Shown: positions 25,999 through 64,000 of the stretch, in pieces
Position numbering within the stretch: position 1 is the first letter of the stretch
How the letters are laid out: every line of letters begins with the position of its first letter
NCBI GenBank assembly: GCA_963814275.1
Contig: CAWFCE010000002.1
Location: forward strand, 298,537-362,536
DNA from: Candidatus Parcubacteria bacterium
Lineage (GTDB): Bacteria; Patescibacteriota; Patescibacteriia; Patescibacteriales; UBA12075
Direction: 5' to 3'
Length of the DNA stretch: 64,000 bases
Notes under the pieces: generated by a model
The model's database searches: none
What the model was told of the DNA's origin: nothing
Seen by the model: the letters and a program-made list of their open reading frames with translations, nothing else
Program-made: the position numbers and the translations under genes

Positions 25999-26020
25999 TT
26001 ATATAAAATAATATATATTT

Positions 26021-31825: not shown

Positions 31826-32833
31826 ATGTTCAATAAAATAAAAAAATCATGGCTTTGGTTCTCGCTACTGGTAATATTCCTGTTTGCCGTTTTTCTTCTG
31901 AGCCGGGGCTGGATATATTCGCCGGAGGAGCTCAGCTATGGCGTGACATTTTCGCCTCAACAGGCGACCGAGCTGGGGCTTGATTACCGGGAGGCTTATA
32001 CGGCCGTATTGGACGATCTGGGTGTGAGAAACCTCAGGTTGCCCGCTTATTGGGACGAGGTCGAGCCGGAGCCGGGGGATTTCGATTGGACAACCCTGGA
32101 CTGGCTGATCAGCGAGGCCGGTAAGAGAAACGCGCGCGTGATCCTGGCGGTCGGCGGCCGCCTGCCGCGCTGGCCGGAATGCCATTTTCCCGACTGGGCC
32201 GATGGCCTGGCCGAAACAGAACGTGAGCAGGCTACGCTTACCTATATCGAAACCGTGGTCAGGCGCTATCAAAGTAATAATACCATCGATACCTGGCAGG
32301 TCGAGAACGAACCGTTCCTGCCCCATTTCGGCGAGTGTCCGGAGCCTGATCCGGATTTTCTCGATGCCGAGATTGCCCTGGTCCGGTCGCTCGATTCCCG
32401 GCCGATCCTCTTGTCCGATTCGGGGGAACTGTCGCTCTGGGTGCCGGCAGCCAAGCGGTCGGATATTTTCGGTACTACTATGTACCGCGACACTTATTCG
32501 AATGTCCTTAAACGCTATATCCATTATCCGATCGAGCCGGGTTTTTTCCGCTTTAAGCGCAATATTACCCGCTTGTTCGCCCGGCCGGAAAAATGGATCG
32601 TGGTCGAACTGCAGGCCGAGCCCTGGGGACCCAGACCGTTCCAGGCGCTTAGTCCCGAGGAGCGGGATAAGACCATGAACCTGGAGAAATTCCGGGACAT
32701 CCTCGAGTTCTCCCGCCAGGCCGGCTTTCAGGAATTCTATCTCTGGGGAGTAGAGTGGTGGTTGTGGGAAAAGGAGGTAAATAATAATCCAGCACTCTGG
32801 GATGAAGCAAGGAAGTTATTTACTAGCACGTAA
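31826..32833 (+). CDS. Membrane-anchored clan GH-A (TIM-barrel, GH5/GH42-like) glycoside hydrolase
   Basis: N-terminal TM helix, LRLPAYWDEVEPEPGDFDW, and the acid/base motif WQVENEPF. The exact family is not resolvable by eye. I chose the ATG at 31826 over the track's TTG at 31808. Confidence 0.55.
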   Translation: MFNKIKKSWLWFSLLVIFLFAVFLLSRGWIYSPEELSYGVTFSPQQATELGLDYREAYTAVLDDLGVRNLRLPAYWDEVEPEPGDFDWTTLDWLISEAGKRNARVILAVGGRLPRWPECHFPDWADGLAETEREQATLTYIETVVRRYQSNNTIDTWQVENEPFLPHFGECPEPDPDFLDAEIALVRSLDSRPILLSDSGELSLWVPAAKRSDIFGTTMYRDTYSNVLKRYIHYPIEPGFFRFKRNITRLFARPEKWIVVELQAEPWGPRPFQALSPEERDKTMNLEKFRDILEFSRQAGFQEFYLWGVEWWLWEKEVNNNPALWDEARKLFTST

Positions 32834-32834
32834 T

Positions 32835-32967
32835 ACATAGCATGTAACACGCAGCACATAGCACATAGCACGCAGCACATAGCACATATTTCAACGTTTA
32901 TAACATATCTTGGAAATATTTCATGCTATGTGATGCGTGTTGCGTGCTGCGTGTAACGTGTTGTGTG
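32835..32967. repeat. Imperfect palindrome built from 7-nt words (catagca/cgcagca)
   Basis: The left arm acatagcatgtaacacgcagcacatagcacatagcacgcagcacatagcacat and the right arm atgctatgtgatgcgtgttgcgtgctgcgtgtaacgtgttgtgtg are roughly reverse-complementary. Confidence 0.8.
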
Positions 32968-32979
32968 ATAAATTATTTT

Positions 32980-33855
32980 ATGTCTAAACAAACAAAGATC
33001 TACACCATGGGCCTCGACATCGGCGCTACCAATATGCGGATCGTTCTTTTCGACGGGCTCAAGGCGGTAGCCGACGACCTCCTGGCCACGCCCAAAGACA
33101 ATCTGGACCATTTTCTGGTAATGGCCCGGGCCCTGATCGATCCGATGCTGGAAAAGGCGGCGGAAATGAAGGTCAAGGTGGCCTCAGTGGGAGTGGGTAT
33201 TGCCGGAACCCTGAATTCGGACCAAAACGTGATGCTGGCGTCGCCGAATCTGCCGATCCTCAATAAGGTCAATTTGCGCGAGCAGTTCAAGGCTGTGACC
33301 GACCTGCCGGTGTTTTTTGACAATGACGCGAGCTGTTTCGTGCGCGGTGAGGCGTTGGTCGGCGCGGGCAAGGGCTGGGACAATATCTACGGCATCACTC
33401 TCGGCACCGGCATCGGTGGCGGCTGGTGGTTCGGGGGCAAAGTATACGAAGGCGCCCACGGCGGCGGCGGCGAGCCGGGCGAGTTTATTATTGATTTTGA
33501 ACACGGAATCGGCCTGGAGGAGGCATACCACAAGATCATGCAGAGTAATCCCGCCCAAGTAGCCGAAGAGGCTTATCGCGGCGATGTGCTGGCGGAGAGA
33601 ACATTTGAAGAATTAGGACGGATGCTGGGGATCGCCTTTGCAAATATTGTCAATTTGATCGATCCGGAAATTTTTATTATTGGCGGCAGTGTGGTTGAAT
33701 CAAGCGCTCTTTTTTTATCCGAAGCGAAGAAGGCGATGCACGAGCATATCGAGTCAAGCGAAGCCCGGAAGAAGATCAAGATCGTCAAAGGCAAGCTGGG
33801 CGATCTGGCCGGCGCCATTGGTGCAGCGTTGCTGGCATCGTCACGTAACGCATAG
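32980..33855 (+). CDS. ROK-family sugar kinase (glucokinase-like)
   Basis: LDIGATNMRIVLF, GVGIAGTLN, DNDASCFVRGEA, and GTGIGGGWWFGG....GGGGEPGEF. The track's upstream extension merely translates the palindrome. Confidence 0.8.
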   Translation: MSKQTKIYTMGLDIGATNMRIVLFDGLKAVADDLLATPKDNLDHFLVMARALIDPMLEKAAEMKVKVASVGVGIAGTLNSDQNVMLASPNLPILNKVNLREQFKAVTDLPVFFDNDASCFVRGEALVGAGKGWDNIYGITLGTGIGGGWWFGGKVYEGAHGGGGEPGEFIIDFEHGIGLEEAYHKIMQSNPAQVAEEAYRGDVLAERTFEELGRMLGIAFANIVNLIDPEIFIIGGSVVESSALFLSEAKKAMHEHIESSEARKKIKIVKGKLGDLAGAIGAALLASSRNA

Positions 33856-33914
33856 CACACAACACATAGCATGCGGTAAATATTTTATGGCTGTAAAATA
33901 GATTTAAATAACAA

Positions 33915-33939
33915 AAAACGGCATTTGGCCGTTTTTTTA
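33915..33939 (+). terminator. Rho-independent terminator after the ROK kinase
   Basis: aacggc-attt(g)-gccgtt followed by TTTTTT. Confidence 0.65.
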
Positions 33940-34304: not shown

Positions 34305-34362
34305 ATCGTAAGCAGGAAAGGCAGTAATTAAATGTTGTGTGCTATGTGTTATGTGCTATGTG

Positions 34363-34779
34363 TCACGTCCCCAGCGGTTGCACCACTTTCACCAGTACGA
34401 AATTGACCATGGCGTAGGCCATGAAGATGACGACGATGCCGATGACGCTCCAGATAATGATATCGCGCCCTTTCTCGACCTGGTTCTTATTCCCGGCCGC
34501 CATCATCCAGGTAAACCCACCGTAGATGAACATGACCAAAGCAATAGAGCCGACAACACCCAGGACGGCATTGATGACTTTGCCGATATAAGAGTTGATT
34601 GTATCAGTTGTAACCGGATCCGAATTGCCGGTCAATGGGTTAGAGAGTGTAACAGGTGTGGCCGGTTTTTTAACGCCTCCTGTATTTGCGCCATCACCAA
34701 TTTCTGCCGTTGCAGTCAAGAATGGAGCAAATATTATGGCAATACTAGCAACAATTACAATTTTTTTAAAATAATTCAT
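34363..34779 (-). CDS. VirB2/TrbC-like pilin-like protein, paralog 11 (dispersed, minus strand)
   Basis: Signal peptide, TM1, the core IYGGFTWMMAAGNKNQVEKGRD, then TM2. Confidence 0.75.
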   Translation of the reverse strand: MNYFKKIVIVASIAIIFAPFLTATAEIGDGANTGGVKKPATPVTLSNPLTGNSDPVTTDTINSYIGKVINAVLGVVGSIALVMFIYGGFTWMMAAGNKNQVEKGRDIIIWSVIGIVVIFMAYAMVNFVLVKVVQPLGT

Positions 34780-38130: not shown

Positions 38131-38612
38131 ATGTTTATTTCTACAAAGATAACTATTTTATTATAGTTAATTCTTTGATTTATATTCTGTCCGCGGATTT
38201 TACGCTGATATTTATATTTTATCTAATATTCAATAAAAATAACGCTTGGCTAGCGCTTTGATTATGAGTAGTTTATTTAATATTAGCTAAATTGTTCTAA
38301 TATTAGGTTGGGGCGCGCTAGTGAATATATTAATATAGCATAATAGTTTAATTTAGTCAAGGGCAATTTACCTTAAATCGGAGATCGGAGATCGTAAATC
38401 AGGCAATGTAAATTTAAAATAATTGATAATATTTATAAAATTGCTAAAATTAACAATATTAATGGACACAGATTTACGATACACGAACTACGAAAACATT
38501 AATATATTTGATAATTATAGCCATATTACTGCCATCTGCTGACTGTTTTCTGTTATCTTTAGATAAAATAAGGCGGGATCCTTGTGGGAGTCCCGCTTTT
38601 GTAGGAACATAG

Positions 38613-38693
38613 CTATTTAGCTTTGGCCGCTTTGTCTTTAGCCGGCTTTTTCTTTTTTTTATCCTTTTTGTCTTTTTTTTGTTTCTTAGCCAT
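38613..38693 (-). CDS. Unannotated 26-aa lysine-rich micro-ORF
   Basis: MAKKQKKDKKDKKKKKPAKDKAAKAK*. A perfect SD (aaaggagg) lies 7 nt upstream of the ATG, and the hairpin gcggga...tcccgc (38574-38597) with a T-run lies downstream. Confidence 0.45.
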   Translation of the reverse strand: MAKKQKKDKKDKKKKKPAKDKAAKAK

Positions 38694-38880
38694 CAAATTG
38701 CCTCCTTTAAAAGATTGTTAGGTACGAATTAATCGCAATATTAAAAAACCGCCTTAATGCGGTATATTTAAAATATATAATATTAATGTTAAAAGATAAT
38801 TAAGATTGATATAGAAATGAGGGCTTGGAACGAAAAGAGGTAATAAAAATCTGTTATCCTGCCTGACCGCAGGCAGGCTG

Positions 38881-39588
38881 TTACTTGCCCAGAGCTTGCC
38901 GAGGGGTCTGCTTTCCAGTTTTTTTCATCTGCTCCCGCCACTTCGCGATTTCCGCGTGGTTGCCGGAGAGCAGGACATCCGGTACTTTGTATTCCTTGCC
39001 CTCGTCATCGATAAAAACTTCCGGCCGGGTGTATTGGCCGTACTCGAGGACGCCCGGCTCGCTATGCGATTCATCGACCGGGCTTTCGGCATTGCCCACT
39101 ACCCCGGGTATCAGGCGGGTGATCGAGTCGACTATCGCCATGGCCGGAATCTCGCCGCCTGTCAGCACATAATCGCCGATCGAGACCTCCTCATCGACGA
39201 AATTCGTGATCCGTTCGTCGACCCCCTCATAGCGGCCGCAGACGAGGATGATATCGTTTAGTTCGGAGTACTCTTTCGCTAGTTGCTGGTTCCAGGTTTT
39301 ACCCTTGGCGGAAAGCAAGATGATTTTAGGCGGTAGGCAGTAGGCGGTAGGCAGTAGGGATTTTTTGATTGATTGAATCGCTTTATACAAAACATCCACC
39401 TTCATCACCATGCCGGCGCCGCCGCCGTAAGGCGTGTCGTCGACCGTGCGGTGCTTGTCTGCGGTCCAGTCGCGCAGATCATGGGTTTCGATCTCGATCT
39501 TTTTATCTTTTTGCGCTCGTTTAATTATGCTCTCGCTGAAGTAAGAGTCGAATATTTCGGGAAAAATCGTAATGATATGGAATTTCAT
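38881..39588 (-). CDS. trmD: tRNA (guanine37-N1)-methyltransferase
   Basis: MKFHIITIFPEIF, PYGGGAGMVMK, CGRYEGVDERI, SIGDYVLTGGE. A (taggcgg/taggcag) word tract lies at 39327-39359, encoding LLPTAYCLPPK. Confidence 0.9.
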   Translation of the reverse strand: MKFHIITIFPEIFDSYFSESIIKRAQKDKKIEIETHDLRDWTADKHRTVDDTPYGGGAGMVMKVDVLYKAIQSIKKSLLPTAYCLPPKIILLSAKGKTWNQQLAKEYSELNDIILVCGRYEGVDERITNFVDEEVSIGDYVLTGGEIPAMAIVDSITRLIPGVVGNAESPVDESHSEPGVLEYGQYTRPEVFIDDEGKEYKVPDVLLSGNHAEIAKWREQMKKTGKQTPRQALGK

Positions 39589-40678: not shown

Positions 40679-40867
40679 AATTATTTTAGATAACAGATAA
40701 CAGACAGCAGATAGCAGTCGTTAATCGTGTCCTATCCTTAGAATATTATAGAATAATTAATAAATATTAGCGTAAATATCAAGTAATGTCAAATTTATTA
40801 TTCTTTTATTTTCCTGAAGTTAACTGTTAATTGTCTACTGTCAATTGTTATATACCGCCCCTCGATT

Positions 40868-40975
40868 CGCTACGCTCCCGATAATGATTTCTGAGCGGGT
40901 AACCCCGTACGACTCGCTTACGCTCGCTACGGGGCAGGCGGGAATCGAAGGGGGCGGAAGCCCCAATCCATCATA
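40868..40975 (-). repeat. Degenerate 3' fragment of tRNA-Gly plus a duplicated 36-nt flank
   Basis: The 36-nt direct repeat cgctacgctcccgataatgatttctgagcgggtaac occurs at 40868-40903 and 41087-41122. Read on the minus strand, the fragment is ggggcttccgccccc-ttcgattccc-g-[ccccgta..tacgggg hairpin]-ttacccgctca. Confidence 0.75.
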
Positions 40976-41185: not shown

Positions 41186-41272
41186 AGTTTAGTTGAAAGT
41201 TATAAAGTATAAAGTTAAAAGTTTATTAGCAGGCTCTTTACAACTTGTCACTTGATAACTTTTAACTAAGGT

Positions 41273-41346: not shown

Positions 41347-41351
41347 GGATT

Positions 41352-41423
41352 CAAATGACGAATGTCGAATTACGAATGTCGAAAGATATCCCATTCGTCA
41401 TTCGAAATTTGTAATTCGACATT
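41352..41423. repeat. Heptamer-word hairpin spacer (gaatgtc/gaattac words)
   Basis: aaatgacgaatgtcgaattacgaatgtcgaaag / cattcgtcattcgaaatttgtaattcgacattt form an imperfect palindrome between tRNA-Pro and tRNA-Phe. Confidence 0.8.
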
Positions 41424-41430
41424 TAAATTG

Positions 41431-41502
41431 TGCCGCGGGTCAGAATTGAACTGACGACACGTAGATTTTCAGTCTACTGCTCTACCACTGAGCTACCGCG
41501 GC
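41431..41502 (-). tRNA. tRNA-Phe(GAA)
   Basis: Minus-strand read: gccgcggtagctcagtggtagagcagtagactGAAaatctacgtgtcgtcagttcaattctgacccgcggca. Confidence 0.85.
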
Positions 41503-41505
41503 CAG

Positions 41506-41588
41506 AGAAAGTAGAAAGTATAAAGTTGAAAGTACAAAGTTATGGTATAAAATAGTACTTTTAACTTTCAACTTTATACTTTCTACTT
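41506..41588. repeat. Heptamer-word hairpin spacer (gaaagta/aaagttg words)
   Basis: agaaagtagaaagtataaagttgaaagtacaaagtt ... gtacttttaactttcaactttatactttctactt. Confidence 0.8.
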
Positions 41589-41593
41589 AATTG

Positions 41594-41666
41594 TTGCGGG
41601 GGTCGGATTCGAACCGACGACCTCCAGGTTATGGGCCTGGCGAGCTGCCAGCTGCTCTACCCCGCG
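41594..41666 (-). tRNA. Initiator tRNA-fMet(CAU)
   Basis: Minus-strand read: cgcggggtagagcagctggcagctcgccaggccCATaacctggaggtcgtcggttcgaatccgacccccgcaa. A C1:A72 mismatch is present as in bacterial initiators. The anticodon loop cccataa has C rather than U at position 33. Confidence 0.8.
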
Positions 41667-41675
41667 CTAATAAAT

Positions 41676-41741
41676 TTCGAATTACGAATGTCGAATTAGT
41701 AAATTTTTTTATTCGTCATTCGACATTCGTAATTCGTCATT
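41676..41741. repeat. Heptamer-word hairpin spacer
   Basis: ttcgaattacgaatgtcgaatta ... attcgtcattcgacattcgtaattcgtcatt. Confidence 0.8.
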
Positions 41742-41749
41742 TGTAAGTG

Positions 41750-41823
41750 TGGGCGCACATGGATTCGAACCATGGACCTCGTCCTTATCAGGGACGCGCT
41801 CTAGCCAACTGAGCTATGCGCCC
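41750..41823 (-). tRNA. tRNA-Ile(GAU)
   Basis: Minus-strand read: gggcgcatagctcagttggctagagcgcgtccctGATaaggacgaggtccatggttcgaatccatgtgcgccca. Confidence 0.9.
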
Positions 41824-42119
41824 GGTATTTTAAAAATAAATTTATTTAAGATTGTAAATATCATTAGGATTTACCCTGGCGGATAATAGAGCGAAATATG
41901 GACCCTTGCCCCGTCGGATGACGGGGTCGTCCTTATCAGGGACGCGCTCTAGCCAACTGAGCTATGCGCCCGGTATTTTAAAAATAAATTTATTTAAGAT
42001 TGTAAATATCATTAGGATTTACCCTGGCGGATAATAGAGCGAAATATGGACCCTTGCCCCGTCGGATGACGGGGTCGTCCTTATCAGGGACGCGCTCTAG
42101 CCAACTGAGCTATGCGCCC
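41824..42119 (-). repeat. Two identical 148-bp tandem units, each a tRNA-Ile pseudogene (intact 5' half, GC hairpin insert, decayed 3' half)
   Basis: The 5' half gggcgcatagctcagttggctagagcgcgtccctgataaggacga recurs ending at 41971 and 42119. It is followed by ccccgtc-atcc-gacgggg and ggtccatatttcgctctattatccgcc (compare ggtccatggttcgaatccatgtgcgccc). Confidence 0.85.
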
Positions 42120-42482
42120 GAAGCAAATTTCGAATTACGAATGTCGAATGTCGAATTTATTTTTTACATAAATTAAAATCATAATATTCGTGAATTCGTA
42201 ATCCCAACAAAAAAGATTGGTTCTAGCTAAATTGAAGGACCAATCTTTTTTGCTTGGTAAAAAAGGAACGGCCCCATAAACCGTTTATGGAGCTAGTAAG
42301 CACCAATTTGCTAGACCACCTTACGACTACCGTGGTAAGGATTTTATCCTGAATCAGAATAAATTCTGATCCATGTACCCTTCCGGAACTTCCGGAAAAG
42401 CCGACCGTAGGAATTCAGAACTGGAATTCGAAACCGAGATTTGGCATTCGACATTCGTAATTCGTCATTCCCGATGTCTCCC

Positions 42483-44078
<1,596 letters not shown>

Positions 44079-44618
44079 GAAAAGTTTTTTGACAGGTTTA
44101 CTTGCCTGTTTAAGCAATGTTGTGTAAACACGAACAGTGCTTAAGGAATATATGAGGAAAATGAGTTTCCTAATTGTTTGTACTTGGTTGTTGCAAATTG
44201 GCGCTTATTAGCGCCATATTATATTCGGTTGTTAATGACCGCAAACGCGATAAATTTGCCTTCCCGCCAGATAAGCAAAAAACAGACCTTACAGCCTGTT
44301 ATCAAGTGTAAGCGGGTCGGTTTTTGGTTTTGTTTTTAGATTGTCATGGATTTATCGCAATTTGTTATTGCAATAATAATATTAAAGGATTTGCCGAAAT
44401 CTGTCAAGGCAATTCAGATAGTAGATAACGGATAGCAGATAGCAGCCAATTTTTTATTTAATATTAAATGATTTATTTAATAAACGAGCTAATATTAGTT
44501 TCCCGGGGTGTGATTAAGGAAAATTATAAATTTATATACAATCAAATTCCGGTTATTTATCAAGAGTATTTGCACAGGTTTTGAACATATTTAAAATGCG
44601 TTTTAAAAAAATTATTTT

Positions 44619-44723: not shown

Positions 44724-46661
44724 ATGTCTGACGATATACTTGATTTAAGGGATAATTCCGTTAAAGACGCGGAAGAAAAATTGGCATCGCCGAAGAGTGA
44801 GCATCGGCGGGAGTTTGAGGCGCGCTTAAAAAGATTGGACGAAAAAGGCGGGGAAGCGGCCGGGGAAGGCGGTGGGGAAGGCGCGGATAATATCATGCCG
44901 GAACCGAAAATCGACCTTCATAGCCAGGATCATCTGGCAAGCGCCAGCGGGAACGATGAGCCGTCCGACGAAACGCTTGATTTGCGCACTGACCAGACAT
45001 CAGCTAATGCCGTGGGCGAGGTTGTCGCCGCAAATAAAAAAGGAAAAAATGAAAAAGAGGATGAAAACCGGAACAAAGATATATCTGGACCCAAGATTGA
45101 TCTCCACAAATTGGACCACCTCTCAAGCGCGAGTGGTGACGATGAGCCGATGGATGAGGCGGTCGATTTGCGTTCTCCGAACGAACGCGTGGAAGTTTTA
45201 AAAACTATGATTTCCGAGCTGGAAGGCGAGCTGGAGAAAATGGAAGGAGCGGTGATTAAATCGCCGGTCAGAGAGCCCGAGAAGGAGAAAACGCCGGAGC
45301 CGGTAATAAAACTGGAAGCGGACATTGCCGATCAGGAAAACAATATTCCCGCGGTAGCGCTTGGGGCCGCAGCGAATATGGCGCAAGAACCGGAAGCTGC
45401 GCCTTTAGCACCCCCGCCGCCACCGCGGCCGACCAGAAAACTCAAGTTCCCCAATGGCTTCCTCTGGGGCACGGCTACCAGCGCGTACCAGATCGAAGGC
45501 GGGGTCAGCAATAACTGGAGCATGTGGGAGCGCTCGATCGGCCGCAAGCTGGAACTGGCCAAGACCAAGAAGAATGTCCATGATTTCATCTGCGGCCAGG
45601 CTTGCGACTCGTACAACCGTTATGAGGAGGATTTCAAGCTGGCCAAGGGCATGAACAATAATGCCGTCCGTGTCGGGATCGAATGGGCGCGGGTCCAGCC
45701 CAAGAAAGACACCTGGAACGTGGATGAGATAAACCATTACCGCGGCGTGCTCAAAGCGGCCAAGAAGCGCGGCCTTACCACCTTTGTCACCCTTTGGCAT
45801 TGGACCATCCCGAACTGGCTGGCCCATATCGGCGGCTGGGAAAACCCGGAAGTGGTCAATTATTTTTTAGCCTTTGTCGATGTCGTGGTCAAAGAATTCG
45901 GTGTTGAAATCGATTATTGGGTGGTCCTCAATGAACCGATGATGTTTGTTTACGGGGGTTATCTTAAGGCTTATCACCCGCCGCAGAAGCGCAGCCTGAG
46001 GAAGGCGGAAAAAGTAACGCGCCATCTGGCGCTGGCGTATTTAAAAAGCTATAATCTGATCCATAAGCATTTTATTGACGCCCAGGTTGGCATGACAAAC
46101 CTGCTGAATTATTTCGAGCCGGCGCATATCTGGAACCCGATTGAGCGGTTATTTGCCGGGACTCTGCACTATTTTTGGAATAAAAGAATTCTGGAAAAGA
46201 CCGCAAATAAATGTGATTTTGTCGGCGTCAATTATTATTTTCATGACCGGATGGTATGGTACCCGCCTTTCCGGAAGAACAAAAACGCATGGACAAACGA
46301 TAAAGGCTGGGAAATATACCCAAAAGGAATTTATCAGGTATTGAAATTTGCCGCCAAATACGGAAAGCCTATTTATATCCTGGAAAACGGCACGGCGGAT
46401 GCCGCCGATAAGCATCGGGAGCGGTATATCAAAGAACACTTGCGGTATGTCCATCAGGCGATCGCGGACGGAGCGGACGTGCGCGGTTATTTCCATTGGT
46501 CGCTTCTCGATAATTTTGAATGGAGCTTCGGCTATGAGCCGAAATTCGGGCTATATACGGTTGACCGCGAGACTTTTACCCGGACCCCGCGTCCGAGTGC
46601 GGAGGTCTATAAAAAAATCTGCAAGGAGAACGCGGTGGAAGTAGACGAAGTACAAAGTTAA
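44724..46661 (+). CDS. GH1 beta-glucosidase with a ~235-aa acidic repeat-containing N-terminal extension
   Basis: GH1 motifs: FLWGTATSAYQIEGG, TLWHW, the acid/base VLNEP and the nucleophile YILENG. The N-terminus contains two copies of PKIDLH..DHL.SASG.DEP.DE..DLR. Confidence 0.85.
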   Translation: MSDDILDLRDNSVKDAEEKLASPKSEHRREFEARLKRLDEKGGEAAGEGGGEGADNIMPEPKIDLHSQDHLASASGNDEPSDETLDLRTDQTSANAVGEVVAANKKGKNEKEDENRNKDISGPKIDLHKLDHLSSASGDDEPMDEAVDLRSPNERVEVLKTMISELEGELEKMEGAVIKSPVREPEKEKTPEPVIKLEADIADQENNIPAVALGAAANMAQEPEAAPLAPPPPPRPTRKLKFPNGFLWGTATSAYQIEGGVSNNWSMWERSIGRKLELAKTKKNVHDFICGQACDSYNRYEEDFKLAKGMNNNAVRVGIEWARVQPKKDTWNVDEINHYRGVLKAAKKRGLTTFVTLWHWTIPNWLAHIGGWENPEVVNYFLAFVDVVVKEFGVEIDYWVVLNEPMMFVYGGYLKAYHPPQKRSLRKAEKVTRHLALAYLKSYNLIHKHFIDAQVGMTNLLNYFEPAHIWNPIERLFAGTLHYFWNKRILEKTANKCDFVGVNYYFHDRMVWYPPFRKNKNAWTNDKGWEIYPKGIYQVLKFAAKYGKPIYILENGTADAADKHRERYIKEHLRYVHQAIADGADVRGYFHWSLLDNFEWSFGYEPKFGLYTVDRETFTRTPRPSAEVYKKICKENAVEVDEVQS

Positions 46662-46734
46662 AAGTTGAAAGTTTATAAAGTATGATGATTACTGCTTTAT
46701 ACTTTATAAACATTCAACTTTCAACTATATTTAT

Positions 46735-47700
46735 ATGTATATACTAGTTGCCGTTGCCTCATTCTTCATCAATGCCGGCGTCTATGTGGCCGACAAGTTT
46801 TTGCTGTCCAAGAAGATCCACTCGTCGATCACCTACGCGTTTTTCGTCGGGATCTGGAGCATCTTCAATTTTGTCCTGCTGTTTCTCGATCCCTGGATGC
46901 CGGATTTCCGCGAGTTTACCCTTGATCTTCTGGCCGGTATCCTGTTCCTGGTGACGCTTGTTTTCTGGTATAAGGCCCTCCACCAGAGCGAAGCGACGCG
47001 GGTGGTGCCGATCGTCGGAGCGCTCATCCCGATCTTCAGCTTCGTCTTTTCTTATATTTTCCTGGGCACCGCCCTGGGCGAGCGGCAGTTCCTGGCTTTC
47101 ATTATCCTGATTATCGGCGGCATCATGATCTCGGCCAAGCATACCCGGTTCTATTATATACGTGATATGCTGGACCGTTTCAAACGGATATTCGGCGACT
47201 TTCTCGGTCCGATCCATGCCCATTACCGGCCGACCCGGCGTTTGATCTTCAACTCGCTGACTTCCGCCCTGCTCTTCGCCGCCTATTACGTGTTGATCAA
47301 GTATATCTATACCACGCAACCCTTTATCGGCGGATTCGTCTGGAGCCGTCTGGGCACTTTCGTCGGGGTGATCCTGATGCTTTTCGTGACCGATTGGCGG
47401 AATTTGATCGTCCTAAACCAGCGCGGCAATAAAACCCCGAAGAATCTGAGCTTTTTCCTCTCTGTCCGGCTGGCGGCGGCGGTCGCTTTCATAATGCTCA
47501 ACTGGGCGATCAGCCTGGGCAATGTCGCGATCGTCAATTCGCTCCAGGGCACGCAGTATATTTTTCTGTTCCTGATCGTGTTGTTCCTGTCGCTCCGCTA
47601 TCCCCGGATCATGAAGGAAGAACTGGGTGGCGGGGTAATGTTCCAGAAAGGGATCGGTACGACGCTGGTGGTGTTGGGGCTGTATATGCTTATTACTTAG
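46735..47700 (+). CDS. EamA/DMT-like 10-TM membrane protein
   Basis: Two EamA-like halves, e.g. ALHQSEATRVVPIVGALIPIFSFVFSYIFLGTALGERQFLAFIILIIGGIMIS. Confidence 0.6.
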   Translation: MYILVAVASFFINAGVYVADKFLLSKKIHSSITYAFFVGIWSIFNFVLLFLDPWMPDFREFTLDLLAGILFLVTLVFWYKALHQSEATRVVPIVGALIPIFSFVFSYIFLGTALGERQFLAFIILIIGGIMISAKHTRFYYIRDMLDRFKRIFGDFLGPIHAHYRPTRRLIFNSLTSALLFAAYYVLIKYIYTTQPFIGGFVWSRLGTFVGVILMLFVTDWRNLIVLNQRGNKTPKNLSFFLSVRLAAAVAFIMLNWAISLGNVAIVNSLQGTQYIFLFLIVLFLSLRYPRIMKEELGGGVMFQKGIGTTLVVLGLYMLIT

Positions 47701-47771
47701 GCTTTAGGCAGTAGGCAATAGGATTGTAGGATGAAACGTAAATCTTGGATTTCAATCCATAGCATAAAAAG

Positions 47772-49352
47772 ATGCATATTCTAATTATCATTTTTTCCAT
47801 TCTATTTACTGTTTTAGCGGTCAAGCGTTTGAATTGGGCGGTTTTTTTGATGTTGGCCCTGCTGCCTGCTTATCAAATCCGATTTCAGGTTCTGGGTATA
47901 CCTTTTACTCTGCTTGAAACAATGATCCTGACCTCATTTGCTATTTGGCTCATCAGGAACTGGAAGCAGATATTAGAGAATTTAAAAAATAAAATAAAGA
48001 ACCGTTTACAAATTACAAATTACAAATTACAAATTACCACGCGTTATCCTTTCGACCTCGAGATTATCGCCCTGCTCATCATATCCTGGATCGCGATCGT
48101 GGTGGCCGGATTTTCGAATGAAGCGCTGGGAGTATGGAAGGCATATTTTTTCGAACCGGTGCTGGTGTTTATTTTGGTGATGAATGTTTTCGGTAATAGC
48201 GCAAAAGACGCAGACTTCACGCAAAAGGCGCAAAATGCCGCCCAGCCGAAATCGGGCAAGGGAATTGAGCCGGTTTTGTGGGCGTTGACTCTGGGGGCGG
48301 GTTGGATAGCGCTGTGGGCGATTATCGAGCGGATCACCGGCTGGACCGCCCACGGGAATTTTTGGCCGCGCGTGACCGGTCCGTTTCCTTATCCCAATGC
48401 GCTGGGGCTTTATTTGGGCCCGGTCTCGGTTCTATTGGTCGGTTGGATTTTGAACAAGATGCAAGACGCAAGATACAAGATACAAAATGACAAAATATTT
48501 ATTGTGCAAATTTTGTCTATTGCGCTTGTGGTACTATTGTCTTTGTTCGCGATCATGCTGGCCAGGAGCGAAGGGGCGATCATCGGGATCCTGGCGGCGG
48601 TATTGGTCATGGGGTTGTTTATGTCCGGTAGTAAAAGAAAGAAGGTCCGTTGGCTGCCGGCCGGCATTACCGGGTTAATATTACTTTTCGTTTTTATAAG
48701 CGCGCCGCTCTATCTCCTGGCCGTACCGCGCGACCAGTATTTCGATTTCCATAATGGCGGGCTTAATTACCTGTCGGACAAGATAATGCTTAAGGACTTG
48801 TCGGGGGAGATCAGGAAACAGCAGTGGCGGGAGACCTGGGCGATGATGAAAGACAATTGGCGCTGGCTGACCGGCACCGGCCTGTCCGGTTATCGGGCGG
48901 CGATCGCGCCGTACCACCAGCCGGGGATATTCTTCAACAGCGGCCGTGATCCGGAATTCCACCGCCACACGGTCTGGGACGAAGCCTACCGCAACGCGCA
49001 TTGGCAGCCGGTTGAGATATATATGTATCCGCACAATTTACTCCTGAATTTCTGGACGGAGCTGGGGCTGGCCGGAGTAATTTTGTTTATCTGGATAATC
49101 CTTAAATTTATTTATTTAGCGTTTACCAGTTACAAATTGCAAACCGCAAATCCAACCGGTGGCCCCCAAAAGGAATATTTACTTTTGGGTTTACTGGGTG
49201 CGATAATAGTTATTGTCGTCCATGGCATTGTCGATGTGCCGTATTTCAAAAACGATCTGGCGGTTTTGTTCTGGCTGCTGGCGGCAATGATGGGTTTTAT
49301 CGGAATATCCGCCCATATCAAAGAAAAAAAAGATAATATTGATGCAGGTTGA
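47772..49352 (+). CDS. O-antigen ligase-like (Wzy_C domain) polytopic membrane protein
   Basis: 526 aa and ~12 TM helices, with a large loop containing ...LARSEGAIIGILAAVL... and HPHNLLLNFWTELGLAG (Wzy_C-type H..N....E.G). A word tract (acaaatt)x4 lies at 48008-48038. Confidence 0.65.
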   Translation: MHILIIIFSILFTVLAVKRLNWAVFLMLALLPAYQIRFQVLGIPFTLLETMILTSFAIWLIRNWKQILENLKNKIKNRLQITNYKLQITTRYPFDLEIIALLIISWIAIVVAGFSNEALGVWKAYFFEPVLVFILVMNVFGNSAKDADFTQKAQNAAQPKSGKGIEPVLWALTLGAGWIALWAIIERITGWTAHGNFWPRVTGPFPYPNALGLYLGPVSVLLVGWILNKMQDARYKIQNDKIFIVQILSIALVVLLSLFAIMLARSEGAIIGILAAVLVMGLFMSGSKRKKVRWLPAGITGLILLFVFISAPLYLLAVPRDQYFDFHNGGLNYLSDKIMLKDLSGEIRKQQWRETWAMMKDNWRWLTGTGLSGYRAAIAPYHQPGIFFNSGRDPEFHRHTVWDEAYRNAHWQPVEIYMYPHNLLLNFWTELGLAGVILFIWIILKFIYLAFTSYKLQTANPTGGPQKEYLLLGLLGAIIVIVVHGIVDVPYFKNDLAVLFWLLAAMMGFIGISAHIKEKKDNIDAG

Positions 49353-49467: not shown

Positions 49468-50223
49468 GTGGCCAAGCTGATACTACAAAAATTCATCGTC
49501 GATTCAGGCTTTTGCTCGCGGCGCCAGGCGACCGAATTGATCAGGGCGGGGAAAGTAACGGTAAACGGTGAAGTGGCTGAGCCGGGCATGAAAGTATTTT
49601 CCAATGACGATGTCCGGATAGGAAAGAAGCGTTTACCCGGCGAGCCGGAAAAAATCTACCTGATCATAAATAAGCCGGATGGCTATGTCTGCACGAACCG
49701 GACTTTTACCGGTGAGAAGAACGTTTATGACCTGCTGCTTGACCGCCAGGGAGAAAAAGCGTATCCGAAACAGCGCCTGTTCGTGGTTGGCCGTCTGGAC
49801 AAGAACAGCCGCGGCTTAGTGTTAATCACCAATGACGGCGATATGGCCCAGCGGGTGTCGCATCCCCGGTTCGGGCATGAAAAAGTATATGCAGTAAAAT
49901 TGCGGATGACGAATGACGAATGCCAAAAGAATAAAGATAGATTGATAAAGAACCTGGTAAAGGGGGTCGATATCGGCGAGGGAGACGGTGTTGTCAGGGC
50001 AAAAAAGGCTGAGTATTTGGGTGAAAATAAATTCAAAGTAATCTTGACCCAGGGGGTGAAACGGCAGATCAGACGGATGTTCAAGACTCTGGGCATCGAA
50101 GTCATCGATCTCAAGCGGACGCGTATCGGCTGTACCAAATGCGGCATTGAATTGGGCGATCTGCGCTGTGGCCGTTGGCGCAAACTCAAGCTGGAAGAAA
50201 TAGAAAAATTACAGGAGAGTTAA
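49468..50223 (+). CDS. RsuA/RluB-family pseudouridine synthase with an S4 domain
   Basis: GTG start. S4 domain: LQKFIVDSGFCSRRQATELIRAGKVTVNGE. Catalytic motif GRLDKNSRGLVLITNDG. A word tract gatgacgaatgacgaatgcc lies at 49905-49924. Confidence 0.85.
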   Translation: MAKLILQKFIVDSGFCSRRQATELIRAGKVTVNGEVAEPGMKVFSNDDVRIGKKRLPGEPEKIYLIINKPDGYVCTNRTFTGEKNVYDLLLDRQGEKAYPKQRLFVVGRLDKNSRGLVLITNDGDMAQRVSHPRFGHEKVYAVKLRMTNDECQKNKDRLIKNLVKGVDIGEGDGVVRAKKAEYLGENKFKVILTQGVKRQIRRMFKTLGIEVIDLKRTRIGCTKCGIELGDLRCGRWRKLKLEEIEKLQES

Positions 50224-50341
50224 TGGTCAAGTGCTAAAAGTCAAATTCGGAGAGGTGGCTCGAGTGGTTGCCCGCGACATAGCCGCTTGGCGGCTCGCGC
50301 GGGTCCGCGCACCCGCGAAGCGGGATGTCGCGGAAAGGCTT

Positions 50342-50587
50342 ATGTATTATACATATTTTTTATTTAGTAAAAACCATAAAAAGGTTTATGTCGGTTCGAC
50401 CGAAGATTTGAAGACCAGAATCAAAACACATAATGAAGGCAGGGTGCAATCGACAAGATATTATCGGCCATGGGTAATTGTGTATTATGAGGCCCATCGC
50501 AATAAAACATTGGCAAGAAAAGCCGAACTTTTCTATAAATCCAGCCAAGGCAGGCGGCAAGTAAAAAAGAAATTAGGTTTAGAGTAA
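50342..50587 (+). CDS. Small GIY-YIG nuclease (81 aa; 82 codons incl. stop), copy 1
   Basis: MYYTYFLFSKNHKKVYVGSTEDLKTRIKTHNEGRVQSTRYYRPWVIVYYEAHRNKTLARKAELFYK... carries the GIY (YTYFL) and YIG (VYVGST) motifs, the conserved Arg and the conserved Glu. The track's upstream extension translates the tRNA fragment and hairpins, so I rejected it. Confidence 0.8.
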   Translation: MYYTYFLFSKNHKKVYVGSTEDLKTRIKTHNEGRVQSTRYYRPWVIVYYEAHRNKTLARKAELFYKSSQGRRQVKKKLGLE

Positions 50588-50697
50588 TATTATTATAGAT
50601 TTCCGGAGAGGTGGCTCGAGTGGTTGCCCGCGACGTAGCCGCTTGGCGGCTCGCGCGGGTCCGCGCACCCGCGAAGCGGGATGTCGCGGAAAGGCTT

Positions 50698-50943
50698 ATG
50701 TATTATACATATTTTTTATTTAGTAAAAACCATAAAAAGGTTTATGTCGGTTCAACCGAAGATTTGAAGACCAGAATCAAAACACATAATGAAGGCAGGG
50801 TGCAATCGACAAGATATTATCGGCCATGGGTAATTGTGTATTATGAGGCCCATCGCAATAAAACATTGGCAAGAAAAGCCGAACTTTTCTATAAATCCAG
50901 CCAAGGCAGGCGGCAAGTAAAAAAGAAATTAGGTTTAGAGTAA
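50698..50943 (+). CDS. Small GIY-YIG nuclease, copy 2
   Basis: The protein is identical to copy 1, with one synonymous tcg-to-tca change. Confidence 0.8.
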   Translation: MYYTYFLFSKNHKKVYVGSTEDLKTRIKTHNEGRVQSTRYYRPWVIVYYEAHRNKTLARKAELFYKSSQGRRQVKKKLGLE

Positions 50944-51053
50944 TATTATTATAGATTTCCGGAGAGGTGGCTCGAGTGGTTGCCCGCGACGTAGCCGCTT
51001 GGCGGCTCGCGCGGGTCCGCGCACCCGCGAAGCGGGATGTCGCGGAAAGGCTT

Positions 51054-51300
51054 ATGTATTATACATATTTTTTATTTAGTAAAAACCATAAAAAGGTTTA
51101 TGTCGGTTCGAACCGAAGATTTGAAGACCAGAATCAAAACACATAATGAAGGCAGGGTGCAATCGACAAGATATTATCGGCCATGGGTAATTGTGTATTA
51201 TGAGGCCCATCGCAATAAAACATTGGCAAGAAAAGCCGAACTTTTCTATAAATCCAGCCAAGGCAGGCGGCAAGTAAAAAAGAAATTAGGTTTAGAGTAA
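51054..51300 (+). pseudogene. GIY-YIG nuclease copy 3, frameshifted
   Basis: gtcggttcgAaccgaag has one extra base relative to copies 1 and 2, and the frame breaks right after the YVGS motif. Confidence 0.75.
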
Positions 51301-51317
51301 TATTATTATAGATTTCC

Positions 51318-51408
51318 GGAGAGGTGGCTCGAGTGGTTGAAGGCGTCGCTCTCGAAAAGCGATGTGCGTGCAAGCGTACCGGGAGTTCGAATCTCCCCCT
51401 CTCCGCCA
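51318..51408 (+). tRNA. tRNA-Ser(CGA), CCA encoded
   Basis: ggagaggtggctcgagtggttgaaggcgtcgctctCGAaaagcgatgtgcgtgcaagcgtaccgggagttcgaatctccccctctccgcca, with a long variable arm. Confidence 0.9.
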
Positions 51409-51487
51409 TTCCAATTTTTGGTTTACGATTTTCGATTTAGATTATAAGCTTAATTCGAAAATCGAAAATCGTAATTCGAAAATTTCC

Positions 51488-53231: not shown

Positions 53232-54260
53232 ATGGACGATTCAAATGAAGACAGAATAATAGCCGGCCAGGAGGCGAATGGCGATAATCAGCTGGATATT
53301 ACGCTGCGGCCGAAGAAACTCGAAGAGTATATCGGCCAGGAGCAGGTCAAGGCCAATATCCGGATCGCGGTCGAAGCCGCCCGGAAGCGCGGCGAGCCGA
53401 TCGAGCATGTGCTGCTTTATGGCGCGCCCGGCCTGGGCAAGACTACCCTGGCCCATATTCTGGCCAATGAAATGGGCACCAATATCCGCGTAACCAGCGG
53501 GCCGGCGATCGAGAAGTCGGGCGATTTGGCGGCCATCCTAACCAACCTCGCCGAAGGGGATATTCTTTTTATCGACGAGATCCATCGCCTGAACAAAGCG
53601 ATCGAAGAAATTCTCTATCCGGCGATGGAGGACTATGCCCTGGACATCATCATCGGCAAGGGACCGAGCGCGCGGACCTTGCGCATCGATCTGCCGCGCT
53701 TTACGATCATCGGCGCGACCACCAAAATGAGCATCTTGTCGGCGCCGCTCCGGGACCGGTTCGGCCTGGTCCATCACCTGCGTTTTTACGAGCTTGATCA
53801 TATCGAGGAAATAATCCACCGCAGCGCCAGGATCCTCGGCATCGCGATCGATGACGATTCCTGCCGCAAGATCGCGACCCGCGCCCGTCGGACGCCGCGG
53901 GTGGCCAACCGCCTTTTGAAGCGCGTCCGCGATTACTGCGAGGTCAAAGGCGACGGCACGATCGGGGAAGTGCACTGCGACGGGGCGTTTACTATGCTTG
54001 ATGTCGATGAATTGGGACTGGACTGGATAGACCGCAAGATCCTGGAGCTGATCATCGACAAATTCAACGGCGGTCCGGTGGGCCTGAATACGATCGCGGC
54101 GGCCACCGGCGAAGATACGGCCACGATCGAAGAGGTGTATGAGCCTTATCTGATGCAGCTCGGTTTCCTGGACCGCAGCCCCCGCGGCCGGATCGCGACC
54201 GACAGCGCCTATCGGCATTTGGGGAAGAAGCCAAAAGACAACCAACGTAAATTGGTTTAA
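53232..54260 (+). CDS. ruvB: Holliday junction branch migration helicase RuvB
   Basis: [13 protein letters not shown], Walker [15 protein letters not shown], Walker [10 protein letters not shown], and GATT....L..PLRDRFG. Confidence 0.95.
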
Positions 54261-54340
54261 TTCCTAATATCTAAATTATAATTTCTAATGAAATTTAAAA
54301 ATATATTAGGAATTATAATTTATAATTTAGGAATTATTCA

Positions 54341-54754: not shown

Positions 54755-55312
54755 ATGTTTTTGATCGACCATCTGCCCAACCAACAACCGGGTGAAAAGA
54801 TAATCCGGATCATCCGTCGGGATTTGTTTATTTTGCTTAAAAAGATAATAATGTTCCTGGGTCTTTTTTTGCTCCCCTTGATACTGCTTTTCGTTATTAT
54901 CTCGGCTGAGCCGCAGTTCCTGATCGGGGAAATATCATTGCCGCTCCTGGTCCTGGGCACAAGCGCCTATTATCTTTTTATCTGGGCGTTTTTCTTTTTT
55001 TCTTTTATCGACTATTATCTGGACGTCTGGTTCATCACCGATGAGCGTATTATTGATATCCAGCAGCAGGGCTTCTTTTCCCGGGTAATAAGCGAGCAGA
55101 AATTGTTCCGCATTCAGGACGTAACGAGCGAGGTCAAGGGGATTTGGCCGACCGTGTTCGCTTTCGGCGACGTCTATGTCCAGACGGCGGGCACTAAAAC
55201 CCGCTTCCATTTCGACGACGTACCCAAGCCGGACGAAGTCCGCGACCTGATCATCAAATTGGCCGAAAAACGCCGCCACGAGGTGCAAACCGAAGAAGAC
55301 CGGGATAGTTGA
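54755..55312 (+). CDS. Membrane protein with a bacterial PH (bPH_2/YdbT-like) domain
   Basis: PGEKIIRIIRRDLFILL, two TM helices, then ...YLDVWFITDERIIDIQQQGFFSRVISEQKLFRIQDV. The stop codon lies inside the first 'gatagttga' word of the downstream repeat. Confidence 0.6.
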   Translation: MFLIDHLPNQQPGEKIIRIIRRDLFILLKKIIMFLGLFLLPLILLFVIISAEPQFLIGEISLPLLVLGTSAYYLFIWAFFFFSFIDYYLDVWFITDERIIDIQQQGFFSRVISEQKLFRIQDVTSEVKGIWPTVFAFGDVYVQTAGTKTRFHFDDVPKPDEVRDLIIKLAEKRRHEVQTEEDRDS

Positions 55313-55394
55313 GATAGTTGAGATAGTTGAGATTGTTGGGATGGTTGGGATGGTTGGGATAATCAAATTTAATCCCAACCATCCTAACAATCCC
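55304..55394. repeat. 9-nt-word hairpin (gttgagata / gttgggatg)
   Basis: gatagttgagatagttgagatagttgagattgttgggatggttgggatggttgggat, then aatcaaattt, then aatcccaaccatcctaacaatccc. Confidence 0.8.

Positions 55395-60544: not shown

Positions 60545-64000
<3,456 letters not shown>

Follow-up and report, generated by a model that had tools for sequence, protein, structure and literature searches.

What generates the tandem seven-nucleotide (7-nt) words found between many genes of a Parcubacteria genome, and do the hairpins that they form have a role in its transcripts? The question comes from a 64,000-nt stretch of Candidatus Parcubacteria bacterium DNA (assembly GCA_963814275.1, contig CAWFCE010000002.1, positions 298,537 to 362,536 of the forward strand; this whole stretch is called the window below), in which a preliminary description had pointed out imperfect palindromes whose arms are repeated heptamers. 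We give a probability of roughly 60% to the reading that these arrays are of the heptanucleotide simple-sequence-repeat type (short tandemly repeated repetitive sequences, STRR, or long simple sequence repeats, long SSRs), produced by slippage and local copying, with the paired stems being cut by RNase III. Gene identities along the window were assigned with Pfam, against which 30 window open reading frames (ORFs) were scanned.

A seven-nucleotide period in the spacers

The period of the arrays, their pairing, positions, turnover and dispersed copies were all observed directly. When a self-match of 80% or more across 21 nt was required, period 7 gave 20 segments in the window while 0.05 were expected from 20 dinucleotide-preserving shuffles, and each other period within 2-13 gave 0-2 segments; periods 14 and 21, which also appear, are multiples of 7. 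The proposed check of a period-7 excess against a composition-matched null is thus borne out within the window. Tandem Repeats Finder (TRF) returned about 50 rows with a period of 7 or 14 and 2.1-9.3 copies, a looser scan of our own gave 45 segments, and some window arrays have a period of 8 or 9 rather than 7. Arrays with three or more tandem copies of a 7-nt unit are present, and the unit length 7 is over-represented when compared both to other lengths and to the composition-matched null. The arrays are predominantly intergenic, with a density of 18.9 per 10 kb in intergenic and 2.8 per 10 kb in coding DNA (about 7-fold). The claim that they are pervasive and fill the intergenic spacers holds for this enrichment but is overstated in extent, as arrays are carried by about 21/52 spacers (spacers of at least 25 nt; 11 of 14 period-7 matches; the intergenic spacer counts rest on crude gene calls).

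Roughly every second array is matched by an inverted partner: 18/38 in the window and 11/23 in L001, a locus of a related genome introduced below, when arrays of at least 23 nt with a partner within 700 nt are counted. In-gene arrays never reached this partner threshold. The paired arrays form A/U-rich stems of 25-35 base pairs (bp) with fold z-scores of about -3 to -11. Among 17 loci that had been described as palindromic, 12 are real hairpins with arms of tandem repeats (3214-3296, 26221-26379, 32835-32967, 38380-38500, 41352-41423, 41506-41588, 41676-41741, 46647-46725, 51420-51487, 54255-54340, 55304-55394 and 57695-57790) and one is a loose pair, but four are single direct arrays without a partner (40685-40730, 40800-40860, 44405-44450 and 47700-47740; fold z -1.0 to +0.2). 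The reported overlap with stop codons was recovered, since arrays contain the ends of the GH1 ORF (46661) and of the PH-domain ORF (55312); the bPH/QueA hairpin (55300-55420) spans the bPH stop codon as well as the QueA start codon. Paired hairpins whose flanks were checked are located between co-directional genes or tRNAs, and they probably lie inside transcripts. Rfam, at gathering and E-value thresholds, gave no family for the hairpins, and chance microRNA-like matches were far below gathering. A CRISPR array was considered and rejected, as identical repeats set at regular intervals, with unique spacers between them, are lacking.

Hairpins were found in 6/6 tRNA-tRNA spacers of the window, four on the minus and two on the plus strand. 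Every spacer of the minus-strand tRNA cluster is indeed a heptamer-armed hairpin, as first described (4/4 fold, z -3.4 to -11), and on the transcribed strand just 1-6 nt are left unpaired on each flank. The tRNA-Phe/tRNA-Met hairpin (41503-41592) displays 25 contiguous bp and 32-nt arms that are 94% complementary, one of them longer by one 7-nt unit, and the tRNA-Leu/tRNA-Val hairpin has 30-nt arms, 83% complementary, with a 95-nt loop. Between the 16S 3' end and tRNA-Ile there is also a structured domain of 280 nt, with a CGAATNN stem of 20 bp at its base (fold of 42115-42480, -124.4 kcal/mol, z -8.7). Within the 23S rRNA gene, the insertion at 62046-62214 replaces a terminal hairpin loop, which is the structural feature of an intervening sequence (IVS), the helix being assigned as helix 45 by model position; the hairpin at 62740-62845 lengthens the 23S hairpin at Rfam positions 1750-1775, with a loop of 69 nt compared to 3 in the model. 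A third 23S insertion, at 62957-63100, measures 148 nt against 9 in the model (Rfam about 1893-1901) and forms a hairpin with 37-nt arms that is not heptamer-built.

Shared word families and word turnover between relatives

About seven word families cover most window arrays, with several loci each, which contradicts the earlier statement that each locus has its own word. The CGAATNN family is found in the tRNA-Pro/tRNA-Phe and tRNA-Met/tRNA-Ile spacers, in both arms of the 16S/tRNA-Ile stem, after tRNA-Val, after rnc, and in the TruB and RluB arrays. When the consensus words were clustered, allowing for rotation, reverse complement and one mismatch, nearly all of them were chained into one cluster. 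The CGAATNN hairpins of the window share exact 25-nt matches, and the arms of the tRNA-Met/tRNA-Ile hairpin have exact 25-nt matches to 42125 and 42445, one per arm. In L001 the GH1/EamA, bPH/QueA and 23S hairpins can be aligned over their full length; exact matches of 28 nt and 24 nt connect them, and the differences are confined to the loops. The end-to-end alignment of the L001 hairpins, together with the 25-nt matches in the window, indicates that they were copied between sites in the genome.

The closest relatives found have 64-71% protein identity (the best among metagenome contigs reaching 66%). They are an ENA genome (loci L001 and L202; QueA 68-71% identical) and a JGI genome (L204; GH1 64% identical), both syntenic with the window; a search of genome contigs with GH1 found no related loci. 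Named relatives of the window QueA and GH1 are Patescibacteria, Parcubacteria and Falkowbacteria. The three genomes agree in where arrays or hairpins are placed, but mostly not in the words. At the GH1/EamA junction, AAGTTGA in the window corresponds to GTTATGG/GAGTTAT in the ENA genome and to AATTTTC in L204 (z -6.7). The TrmD loop at about residue 76 carries TAGGCAG in the window, CGATGTG in the ENA genome, and AGTATTA/CTTAATA as an inverted pair in L204; around residue 78 of Wzy the words are TTACAAA, TCCGCGA and GTTACGA, respectively. The S16 leader has GTTATCT in the window, TAATTAG in the ENA genome, and no TRF-listed array in L204. Each of the three Wzy arrays has a counterpart at the matching position in L001, where the words are different, and the first two also have one in L204. 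The RluB and QueA arrays behave likewise, and at the bPH/QueA site L001 has a period-7 GAGTTAT hairpin where the window has period 9. The suggested comparison of orthologous spacers returned, among these relatives, word replacement at kept sites (GH1/EamA, S16 leader). The idea of a generative process, also put forward in the preliminary description, is supported by these data: hairpin arms differ by whole 7-nt units, and perfect arrays with replaced words occupy orthologous sites.

The exceptions, in which the sequence itself is conserved, are the period-8 hairpin before the RNase III gene, the tRNA-Ser/tRNA-Arg spacer, where the word CGAAAAT is kept in the orthologous L001 spacer (that of L204 has just 8 nt), and the 23S promoter region with GTTATCT. 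In the pre-RNase III hairpin, 21 of 24 pairs are invariant between the window and L001, three one-sided changes keep pairing and none is broken; the alignment fold, made from two sequences only, contains no compensatory double changes.

Proposed origin of the arrays and fate of the paired stems

From these observations we infer slippage, a copying mechanism and RNase III cleavage. Replication slippage would create the arrays and lengthen or shorten them, 7 nt at a time; slippage loops of 7-nt size would escape mismatch repair. Arrays would also be copied between nearby sites of the same genome, hence the few dominant word families in each genome. Where arrays of complementary words surround a short loop, the operon transcript would fold into a 20-35-bp A/U-rich stem, without the GC core or U tract of an intrinsic terminator and with the length of double-stranded RNA cut by RNase III. 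The most likely effect would be cleavage and segmentation of the transcript: 16S rRNA would be separated from the tRNAs, inter-tRNA spacers released and 23S insertions excised in the manner of an IVS, while junctions between cistrons of an mRNA would be processed or stabilised, and among them the RNase III gene's own leader. Two findings provide the link to RNase III, namely that its gene (57790-58482) belongs to the window and is directly preceded by a conserved hairpin, and that one 23S insertion is at the IVS site of helix 45, as judged by position. Such a role would be facultative, with hairpins that are tolerated and turn over quickly but are not required. Unpaired arrays would persist in permissive protein loops and, in the case of GTTATCT, at translation-apparatus genes, a short way upstream of their promoters.

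Several observations weigh against this account. It leaves the 7-nt unit unaccounted for, and a few related lineages prefer period 8. When the units of one arm were shuffled, the observed mirrored word order was clearly better in about 4/17 hairpins only, so that arm pairing comes mainly from complementary words. The sense strand is more stable in 11/22 hairpins, G-U pairs number 68 versus 51 and there is no strand asymmetry; since the strands fold about equally, a role at the RNA level, at the DNA level or no role are not distinguished. The tRNA-spacer hairpins are, besides, weak or absent in relatives. In L202 the tRNA-Ile/tRNA-Met spacer has a strong hairpin with another word (z -9.8), the tRNA-Met/tRNA-Phe hairpin is weak (z -1.2) and a third one is GC-rich and not heptameric; in L204 the tRNA-Ile/tRNA-Met hairpin is weak, the tRNA-Pro/tRNA-Gly spacer has none (z +0.8) and the tRNA-Ser/tRNA-Arg spacer is reduced to 8 nt. 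As they are not conserved in L202 and L204, these hairpins are not required for tRNA maturation, and any processing role would be dispensable. Their function as processing stems is plausible but, to judge from the L204 spacers, could not be obligatory.

The same weak or missing hairpins are in favour of the likeliest alternative, according to which arrays and hairpins are a neutral or selfish by-product of slippage and local copying, without any role in RNA processing or expression. We hold this to be possible, if on the unlikely side. It would accommodate the missing or weak tRNA-spacer hairpins of the relatives, the free replacement of words at conserved sites, the equal folding of both strands, the arrays in permissive protein loops and the patchy distribution among relatives. 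It fits less well with the GH1/EamA hairpin, kept in three genomes despite complete word replacement, or with the pre-RNase III hairpin and the 23S-promoter GTTATCT array, both conserved above their flanks; moreover, all six tRNA-tRNA spacers of this genome are hairpins.

GTTATCT arrays at genes of the translation apparatus

GTTATCT arrays occur at four loci in the window when 0.08 would be expected. They raise another possibility, restricted to unpaired arrays, that these are protein-binding sites and that the GTTATCT arrays are upstream activating or regulatory elements of translation-apparatus genes. At both putative rRNA promoters the array abuts the -35 TTGACA, and in the putative 23S promoter region array, -35 and -10 are nearly identical in L001. 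In addition, the 23-nt string gtctgttatctgttatctaaaat is common, as an exact match, to the rpsP leader of the window and the 23S promoter array of L001. Standing against this, the word in the S16 leader of L202 is another one, TAATTAG, a protein that binds the arrays is not known, and the promoters are consensus matches only. GTTATCT may serve translation-apparatus genes as a shared element of control, although we rate binding sites as a rather improbable explanation of the unpaired arrays.

A more ambitious extension appears quite doubtful to us. It would have an active copy-and-slip process install hairpins at fixed sites, these being operon junctions, tRNA spacers, rRNA helix tips and the TrmD, Wzy, RluB and QueA loops. 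The stems would then be the main RNase III-dependent punctuation of transcripts in an organism whose RNase set may be reduced, and GTTATCT would provide shared control of rRNA and ribosomal-protein promoters.

Mobile elements, terminators and assembly artefacts

The dispersed copies could alternatively be mobile elements resembling repetitive extragenic palindromic (REP) sequences, their hairpin-forming doublets (REPINs) or miniature transposable elements with inverted repeats (MITEs), mobilised by a transposase whose gene lies in another part of the genome. The three L001 hairpins aligning end to end and the long exact matches among CGAATNN hairpins would be expected of such elements, and so would the 23S site at which L001 has about 150 nt including the hairpin, compared to about 55 nt and no hairpin in the window. 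However, the flanks of the three homologous L001 copies show no target-site duplication, the alignments of L001 hairpins and of window CGAATNN hairpins reveal no conserved terminal or REP head motif, and there is no transposase, including those of the Y1/RAYT (REP-associated tyrosine transposase) type, among the 30 window ORFs scanned. There are many word families and not one, the positions are conserved between genera, unlike a recent insertion, and a tandem 7-nt structure is not a REP or MITE feature. The families here, about seven in number and each with tandem internal structure, comprise 3-7 related copies. The likeness to REP/REPIN elements lies in short imperfect palindromes in many copies, intergenic and often at 3' ends within operons; the many word families, the internal 7-nt tandem structure, the lack of a head motif and the lack of a RAYT in the 30 ORFs set the arrays apart. 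REP elements at 3' ends in operons can stabilise upstream mRNA. The label REP/MITE-like thus survives for the homologous dispersed copies but not for the hallmarks of transposition, and movement by a transposase seems to us an unlikely origin.

The preliminary description had proposed that the hairpins probably act as terminators or processing stems and, at the same time, that they do not look like ordinary terminators; as to termination, only the second part agrees with our data. A consensus scan found canonical terminators with a GC stem and T tract at 23071-23090, 25962-25991, 33913-33937, 38584-38596 and 58533-58559, separate from the heptamer hairpins, none of which is among the terminator-like matches in 20-60 kb. 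Rho-independent termination would be in line with the several hairpins at gene 3' ends that overlap stop codons. Yet no heptamer hairpin combines a GC-rich stem with a T tract after it or otherwise qualifies as an intrinsic terminator, canonical terminators are found elsewhere (that at 58533-58559 directly after an array), and most hairpins lie in co-directional operons or between tRNAs, where termination would harm. We therefore consider it very unlikely that the hairpins are terminators. The bidirectional terminator at 33913-33937 lies inside the 468 nt between two CATAGCA-family arrays.

Finally, an assembly artefact of low-complexity reads can be dismissed with near certainty: two suspiciously perfect long tandem repeats beside tRNA genes in the window are in its favour, but arrays occupy orthologous sites in independent ENA, JGI and Logan assemblies, the same design is found in ENA, JGI and GenBank assemblies, and heptamer arrays are present in complete isolate genomes, e.g. 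Xanthomonas and Calothrix.

Occurrence outside the window and relation to known repeats

Among 80 metagenomic QueA loci, 7 is again the prevailing period; period-7 arrays reach 10 per 10 kb in some relatives and are absent from most distant ones, and hairpins with tandem-repeat arms recur upstream of QueA with periods of 7, 8 and 9. CGAATNN x4 arrays were found at no fewer than 120 loci in a scan of 185,579 species genomes, compared to about one expected by chance (our estimate, which assumes uniform base composition). Among the matches listed are Nostocales, Chloroflexi, Acidobacteria, Verrucomicrobia, Planctomycetes, Bacteroidetes, Xanthomonadales, Patescibacteria, Saganbacteria and one Woesearchaeota metagenome-assembled genome (MAG). 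These listed matches hold 391 period-7 arrays, 25% of them with an inverted partner, and a Chloroflexia contig (L171) has nine neat inverted pairs of the same design in 7 kb.

We found no published account of such repeats in the candidate phyla radiation in the literature searched. Of all long-SSR classes, heptanucleotide repeats are in many prokaryotes the commonest, and polymerase slippage has been proposed for their excess (both statements as cited in PMC4679880 and PMC4692102). The GGGAATC arrays of Xanthomonas form 70-75 convergent pairs per genome, able to form stem-loops (Rehm et al. 2015, PMC4692102); they are strongly biased to sites at or over stop codons, and position and single or paired type are kept between species while length varies (PMC4692102). 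The arrays of the window are like them in their tandem 7-nt units (typically about four in Xanthomonas), mostly intergenic location, convergent pairs, overlap with stop codons and same gene context in relatives. Unlike the one G-rich, quadruplex-capable word of Xanthomonas, there are many A/T-rich families here, and they are present in tRNA spacers, rRNA helices and protein loops, which are not reported there.

In cyanobacteria, STRR heptanucleotides are reported inside the RNase P RNA gene (Vioque 1997, as listed in PMC2858038), and Nostoc heptamer repeats are found near promoters and start codons (bioRxiv 10.1101/2022.06.06.494920). The window arrays share with the cyanobacterial STRR several words per genome, lineage-specific abundance, proximity to promoters and starts, and a location inside a structural RNA gene; CGAATNN arrays are also found, among the matches listed, in Nostoc, Calothrix and Anabaena genomes. 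They differ from the G-rich repeats of Nostoc PCC 7120 in that few inverted pairs are reported there whereas about half of the arrays are paired here, and in belonging to the phylum Patescibacteria. The GTTATCT array of the rpsP leader resembles the TAACTGA direct repeats of marine Beggiatoaceae, which are intergenic and often directly upstream of start codons (MacGregor 2015, PMC4679880); theirs, however, is a single word, inverted in one case only, for which translational control is proposed.

IVSs in helices 9, 25 and 45 of 23S rRNA are excised by RNase III in other bacteria, and that of Coxiella contains heptamers in tandem, in numbers that differ from strain to strain (PMC4990558). Like an IVS, the extended stem-loop at 62046-62214 replaces the terminal loop of what is, by position, helix 45; unlike an IVS, its arms are tandem repeats and it has no ORF.

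Arrays inside genes

Heptanucleotide phase-variation repeats inside ORFs are reported for genes such as neuO of E. coli K1. The in-gene arrays of the window are like them in having tandem 7-nt units inside an ORF, a unit that is not a multiple of three, as at phase-variable loci; only changes of three units would therefore keep the reading frame. Unlike neuO-type repeats, they occupy internal loops of housekeeping genes (TruB, TrmD, RluB and QueA), and the housekeeping function of these enzymes argues against phase variation. The QueA loop has other words in four further metagenomic relatives. In the relatives both arms of an inverted heptamer pair can lie within an ORF, as in TrmD (500-585) and Wzy (14256-14390) of L204, and the L001 Wzy ORF contains an inverted pair (3994-4029 with 4478-4518) 480 nt apart; with both arms inside one ORF, the whole hairpin is translated in frame. 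QueA homologues from related Patescibacteria have variable inserts in alignment columns 112-140 and 218-232 (RDALQCVST, RDVALQRLY and TDRDATNRVSAV), which have the look of GC-rich hairpin repeats in translated form and would thus be a further type of protein-loop insert.

Implications for annotation and comparison

With these results the heptanucleotide-repeat phenomenon, long known but still lacking an explanation, reaches the candidate phyla radiation as well. One word, CGAATNN, recurs across unrelated phyla and in an archaeal MAG among the matches listed. The three syntenic genomes form a compact test system with the same sites and different words, so that array birth, word turnover and co-evolution of arms become measurable. 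Why the unit is 7 could be approached by comparing lineages that prefer 7 with those that prefer 8. For annotation, the hairpins should not be called terminators, and both in-gene arrays and 23S insertions can mislead gene calling and rRNA models. Such arrays are also likely hot spots of mis-assembly or strain variation in MAGs.

Gene setting and other features of the window

Table 1. Arrays, hairpins and rRNA and tRNA genes of the window (fold energies and z-scores are given where a fold was evaluated)
Feature	Position	Strand	Words	Fold and remarks
16S rRNA gene	42486-44084	minus		Rfam, ARAGORN
23S rRNA gene	60541-64000 (start 60541)	plus		Rfam, ARAGORN
tRNA-Ile, -Met, -Phe, -Pro, -Gly, downstream of 16S	41823 down to 41112	minus		Rfam, ARAGORN
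tRNA-Gly/tRNA-Pro spacer hairpin	41186-41272	minus	AAAGTTA, AAAGTAT	-19.0 kcal/mol, z -3.4; TRF period-7 array 41191-41223
tRNA-Pro/tRNA-Phe spacer hairpin	41348-41429	minus	CGAATNN family	-25.6 kcal/mol, z -4.0; TRF array 41354-41383
tRNA-Phe/tRNA-Met spacer hairpin	41503-41592	minus	AAAGTNN	-37.1 kcal/mol, z -11.0
tRNA-Met/tRNA-Ile spacer hairpin	41667-41748	minus	CGAATNN family	-28.9 kcal/mol, z -8.3
tRNA-Leu/tRNA-Val spacer hairpin	26221-26379 (spacer 26216-26384)	plus	CAATTGA/CAATTAA	sense fold -47.1 kcal/mol
tRNA-Ser/tRNA-Arg spacer hairpin	51409-51487	plus	CGAAAAT	-27.6 kcal/mol, z -6.7
16S/tRNA-Ile stem	42121-42160 + 42439-42470	minus	CGAATNN	inverted repeat, 87% complementary, 20 bp
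23S insertion, about 143 nt	62046-62214	plus		80-nt arms, 70% complementary, heptamer-like period; Rfam LSU positions about 1210-1219
23S heptamer hairpin	62740-62845	plus	GACAATT/GACATTT	-50.3 kcal/mol, z -8.6
ClpP/DHH-family gene hairpin	3207-3301	minus	AGTAATT, GAAATTG	-22.6 kcal/mol, z -4.7; flanking genes by Pfam
Hairpin upstream of ROK-family gene	32824-32972	plus	CATAGCA, CGCAGCA	-64.3 kcal/mol, z -6.0; TRF periods 7, 14, 21
CATAGCA-family array pair	33843-33871 + 34340-34368	plus	CATAGCA family	90% complementary inverted repeat, 468 nt enclosed
Weak hairpin with long AT-rich loop	38372-38495	plus	ATCGGAG, CGTAAAT	-22.9 kcal/mol, z -4.1
GH1/EamA intercistronic hairpin	46645-46734	plus	AAGTTGA	overlaps GH1 stop codon; -28.7 kcal/mol, z -7.3
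Hairpin after RuvB	54255-54340	plus	CTAATTT, ATAATTT	-26.7 kcal/mol, z -7.0
bPH/QueA hairpin	55300-55420	plus	period-9 arms GTTGAGATA and GTTGGGATG	-49.3 kcal/mol, z -6.5; TRF period 9, 6.4 copies
Period-8 hairpin	57690-57792	plus	ATATGGTT	directly upstream of RNase III gene (Pfam); -28.1 kcal/mol, z -3.1
Loose array pair	59851-59895 with 60053-60085	plus		160 nt apart; 61% complementary in window, 81% in L001
Single array, EamA/Wzy spacer	47696-47722	plus	TAGGCAG	no partner, no fold, z -1.0
Single array after RNase III stop codon	58482-58517	plus	CGAATGN	followed by canonical terminator 58533-58559
Single array, rpsP leader	40683-40717	minus	GTTATCT/CTGTCTG	directly upstream of rpsP (S16) start codon
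Single array, putative 16S promoter	44415-44446 (region 44379-44446)	minus	CTATCTG/GTTATCT	abuts -35 TTGACA; z +0.2
Array, putative 23S promoter	60053-60085 (region 60053-60121)	plus	GTTATCT	abuts -35 TTGACA; degenerate complement 59851-59895
Array, fourth GTTATCT locus	38542-38558	plus	GTTATCT/CTATCTG	
TruB in-gene array	7151-7189	plus	TCGAATG x4	poorly conserved stretch replaced, no length change compared with solved TruB structure
TrmD in-gene array	39325-39362	minus	TAGGCAG/TAGGCGG x4.6	7-residue loop insertion compared with 3ky7
Wzy_C gene, three arrays	48001-48041, 48453-48490, 49123-49150	plus	TTACAAA (first), ACAAGAT (second)	own scan and Pfam
RluB-like pseudouridine synthase array	49899-49929	plus	ATGACGA	L001 has CGAATGC at same position
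QueA in-gene array	56285-56324	plus	AAAATCG x4.7	loop of hypervariable length

The 16S and 23S genes of the window are unlinked, being on opposite strands about 16 kb apart, and the 16S gene is followed by five tRNAs instead of 23S. The 16S-tRNA-S16 order recurs in L202 and, in similar form but without tRNA-Phe, in L204. In L001 the position of 23S after PilT was confirmed, and the L001 23S gene contains a LAGLIDADG ORF.

At 41779-42120 the window has a perfect 148-nt tandem repeat of 2.3 copies, 100% identical, whose unit consists of 45 nt from the 5' side of tRNA-Ile, up to and including the anticodon arm, and 103 nt of other sequence. The two partial tRNA-Ile copies have an Rfam tRNA score exactly at the gathering threshold (29.2 bits), and the repeat could be a real tRNA-gene duplication or an assembly problem. 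Another long repeat, at 50248-51339, has a 356-nt unit in 3.1 copies with 99% identity and an intact tRNA-Ser after the last copy. Its unit contains a 22-nt piece from the start of tRNA-Ser, together with a GC-rich hairpin and a small ORF in which Pfam recognises a GIY-YIG nuclease domain (E 2e-15), and L001 has a single copy (hyp109); from its composition it looks like a homing-type element targeting the tRNA-Ser gene.

Partial copies of further tRNA genes were found for tRNA-Leu (26018-26048, 31 nt of the 5' end), tRNA-Val (26621-26641, 21 nt of the 3' end) and tRNA-Gly (40868-40903, 36 nt comprising the 3' end and trailer, 100% identical and 219 nt away), and L202 seemingly has a partial copy of the tRNA-Phe 3' end. 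Partial tRNA duplications thus appear common in this genome. Finally, a small minus-strand ORF at 38612-38694, which has a strong ribosome-binding site, encodes a peptide of 27 residues that is very basic (MAKKQKKDKKDKKKKKPAKDKAAKAK), and the stem-loop after it, at about 38567-38597, could terminate transcription in either direction.

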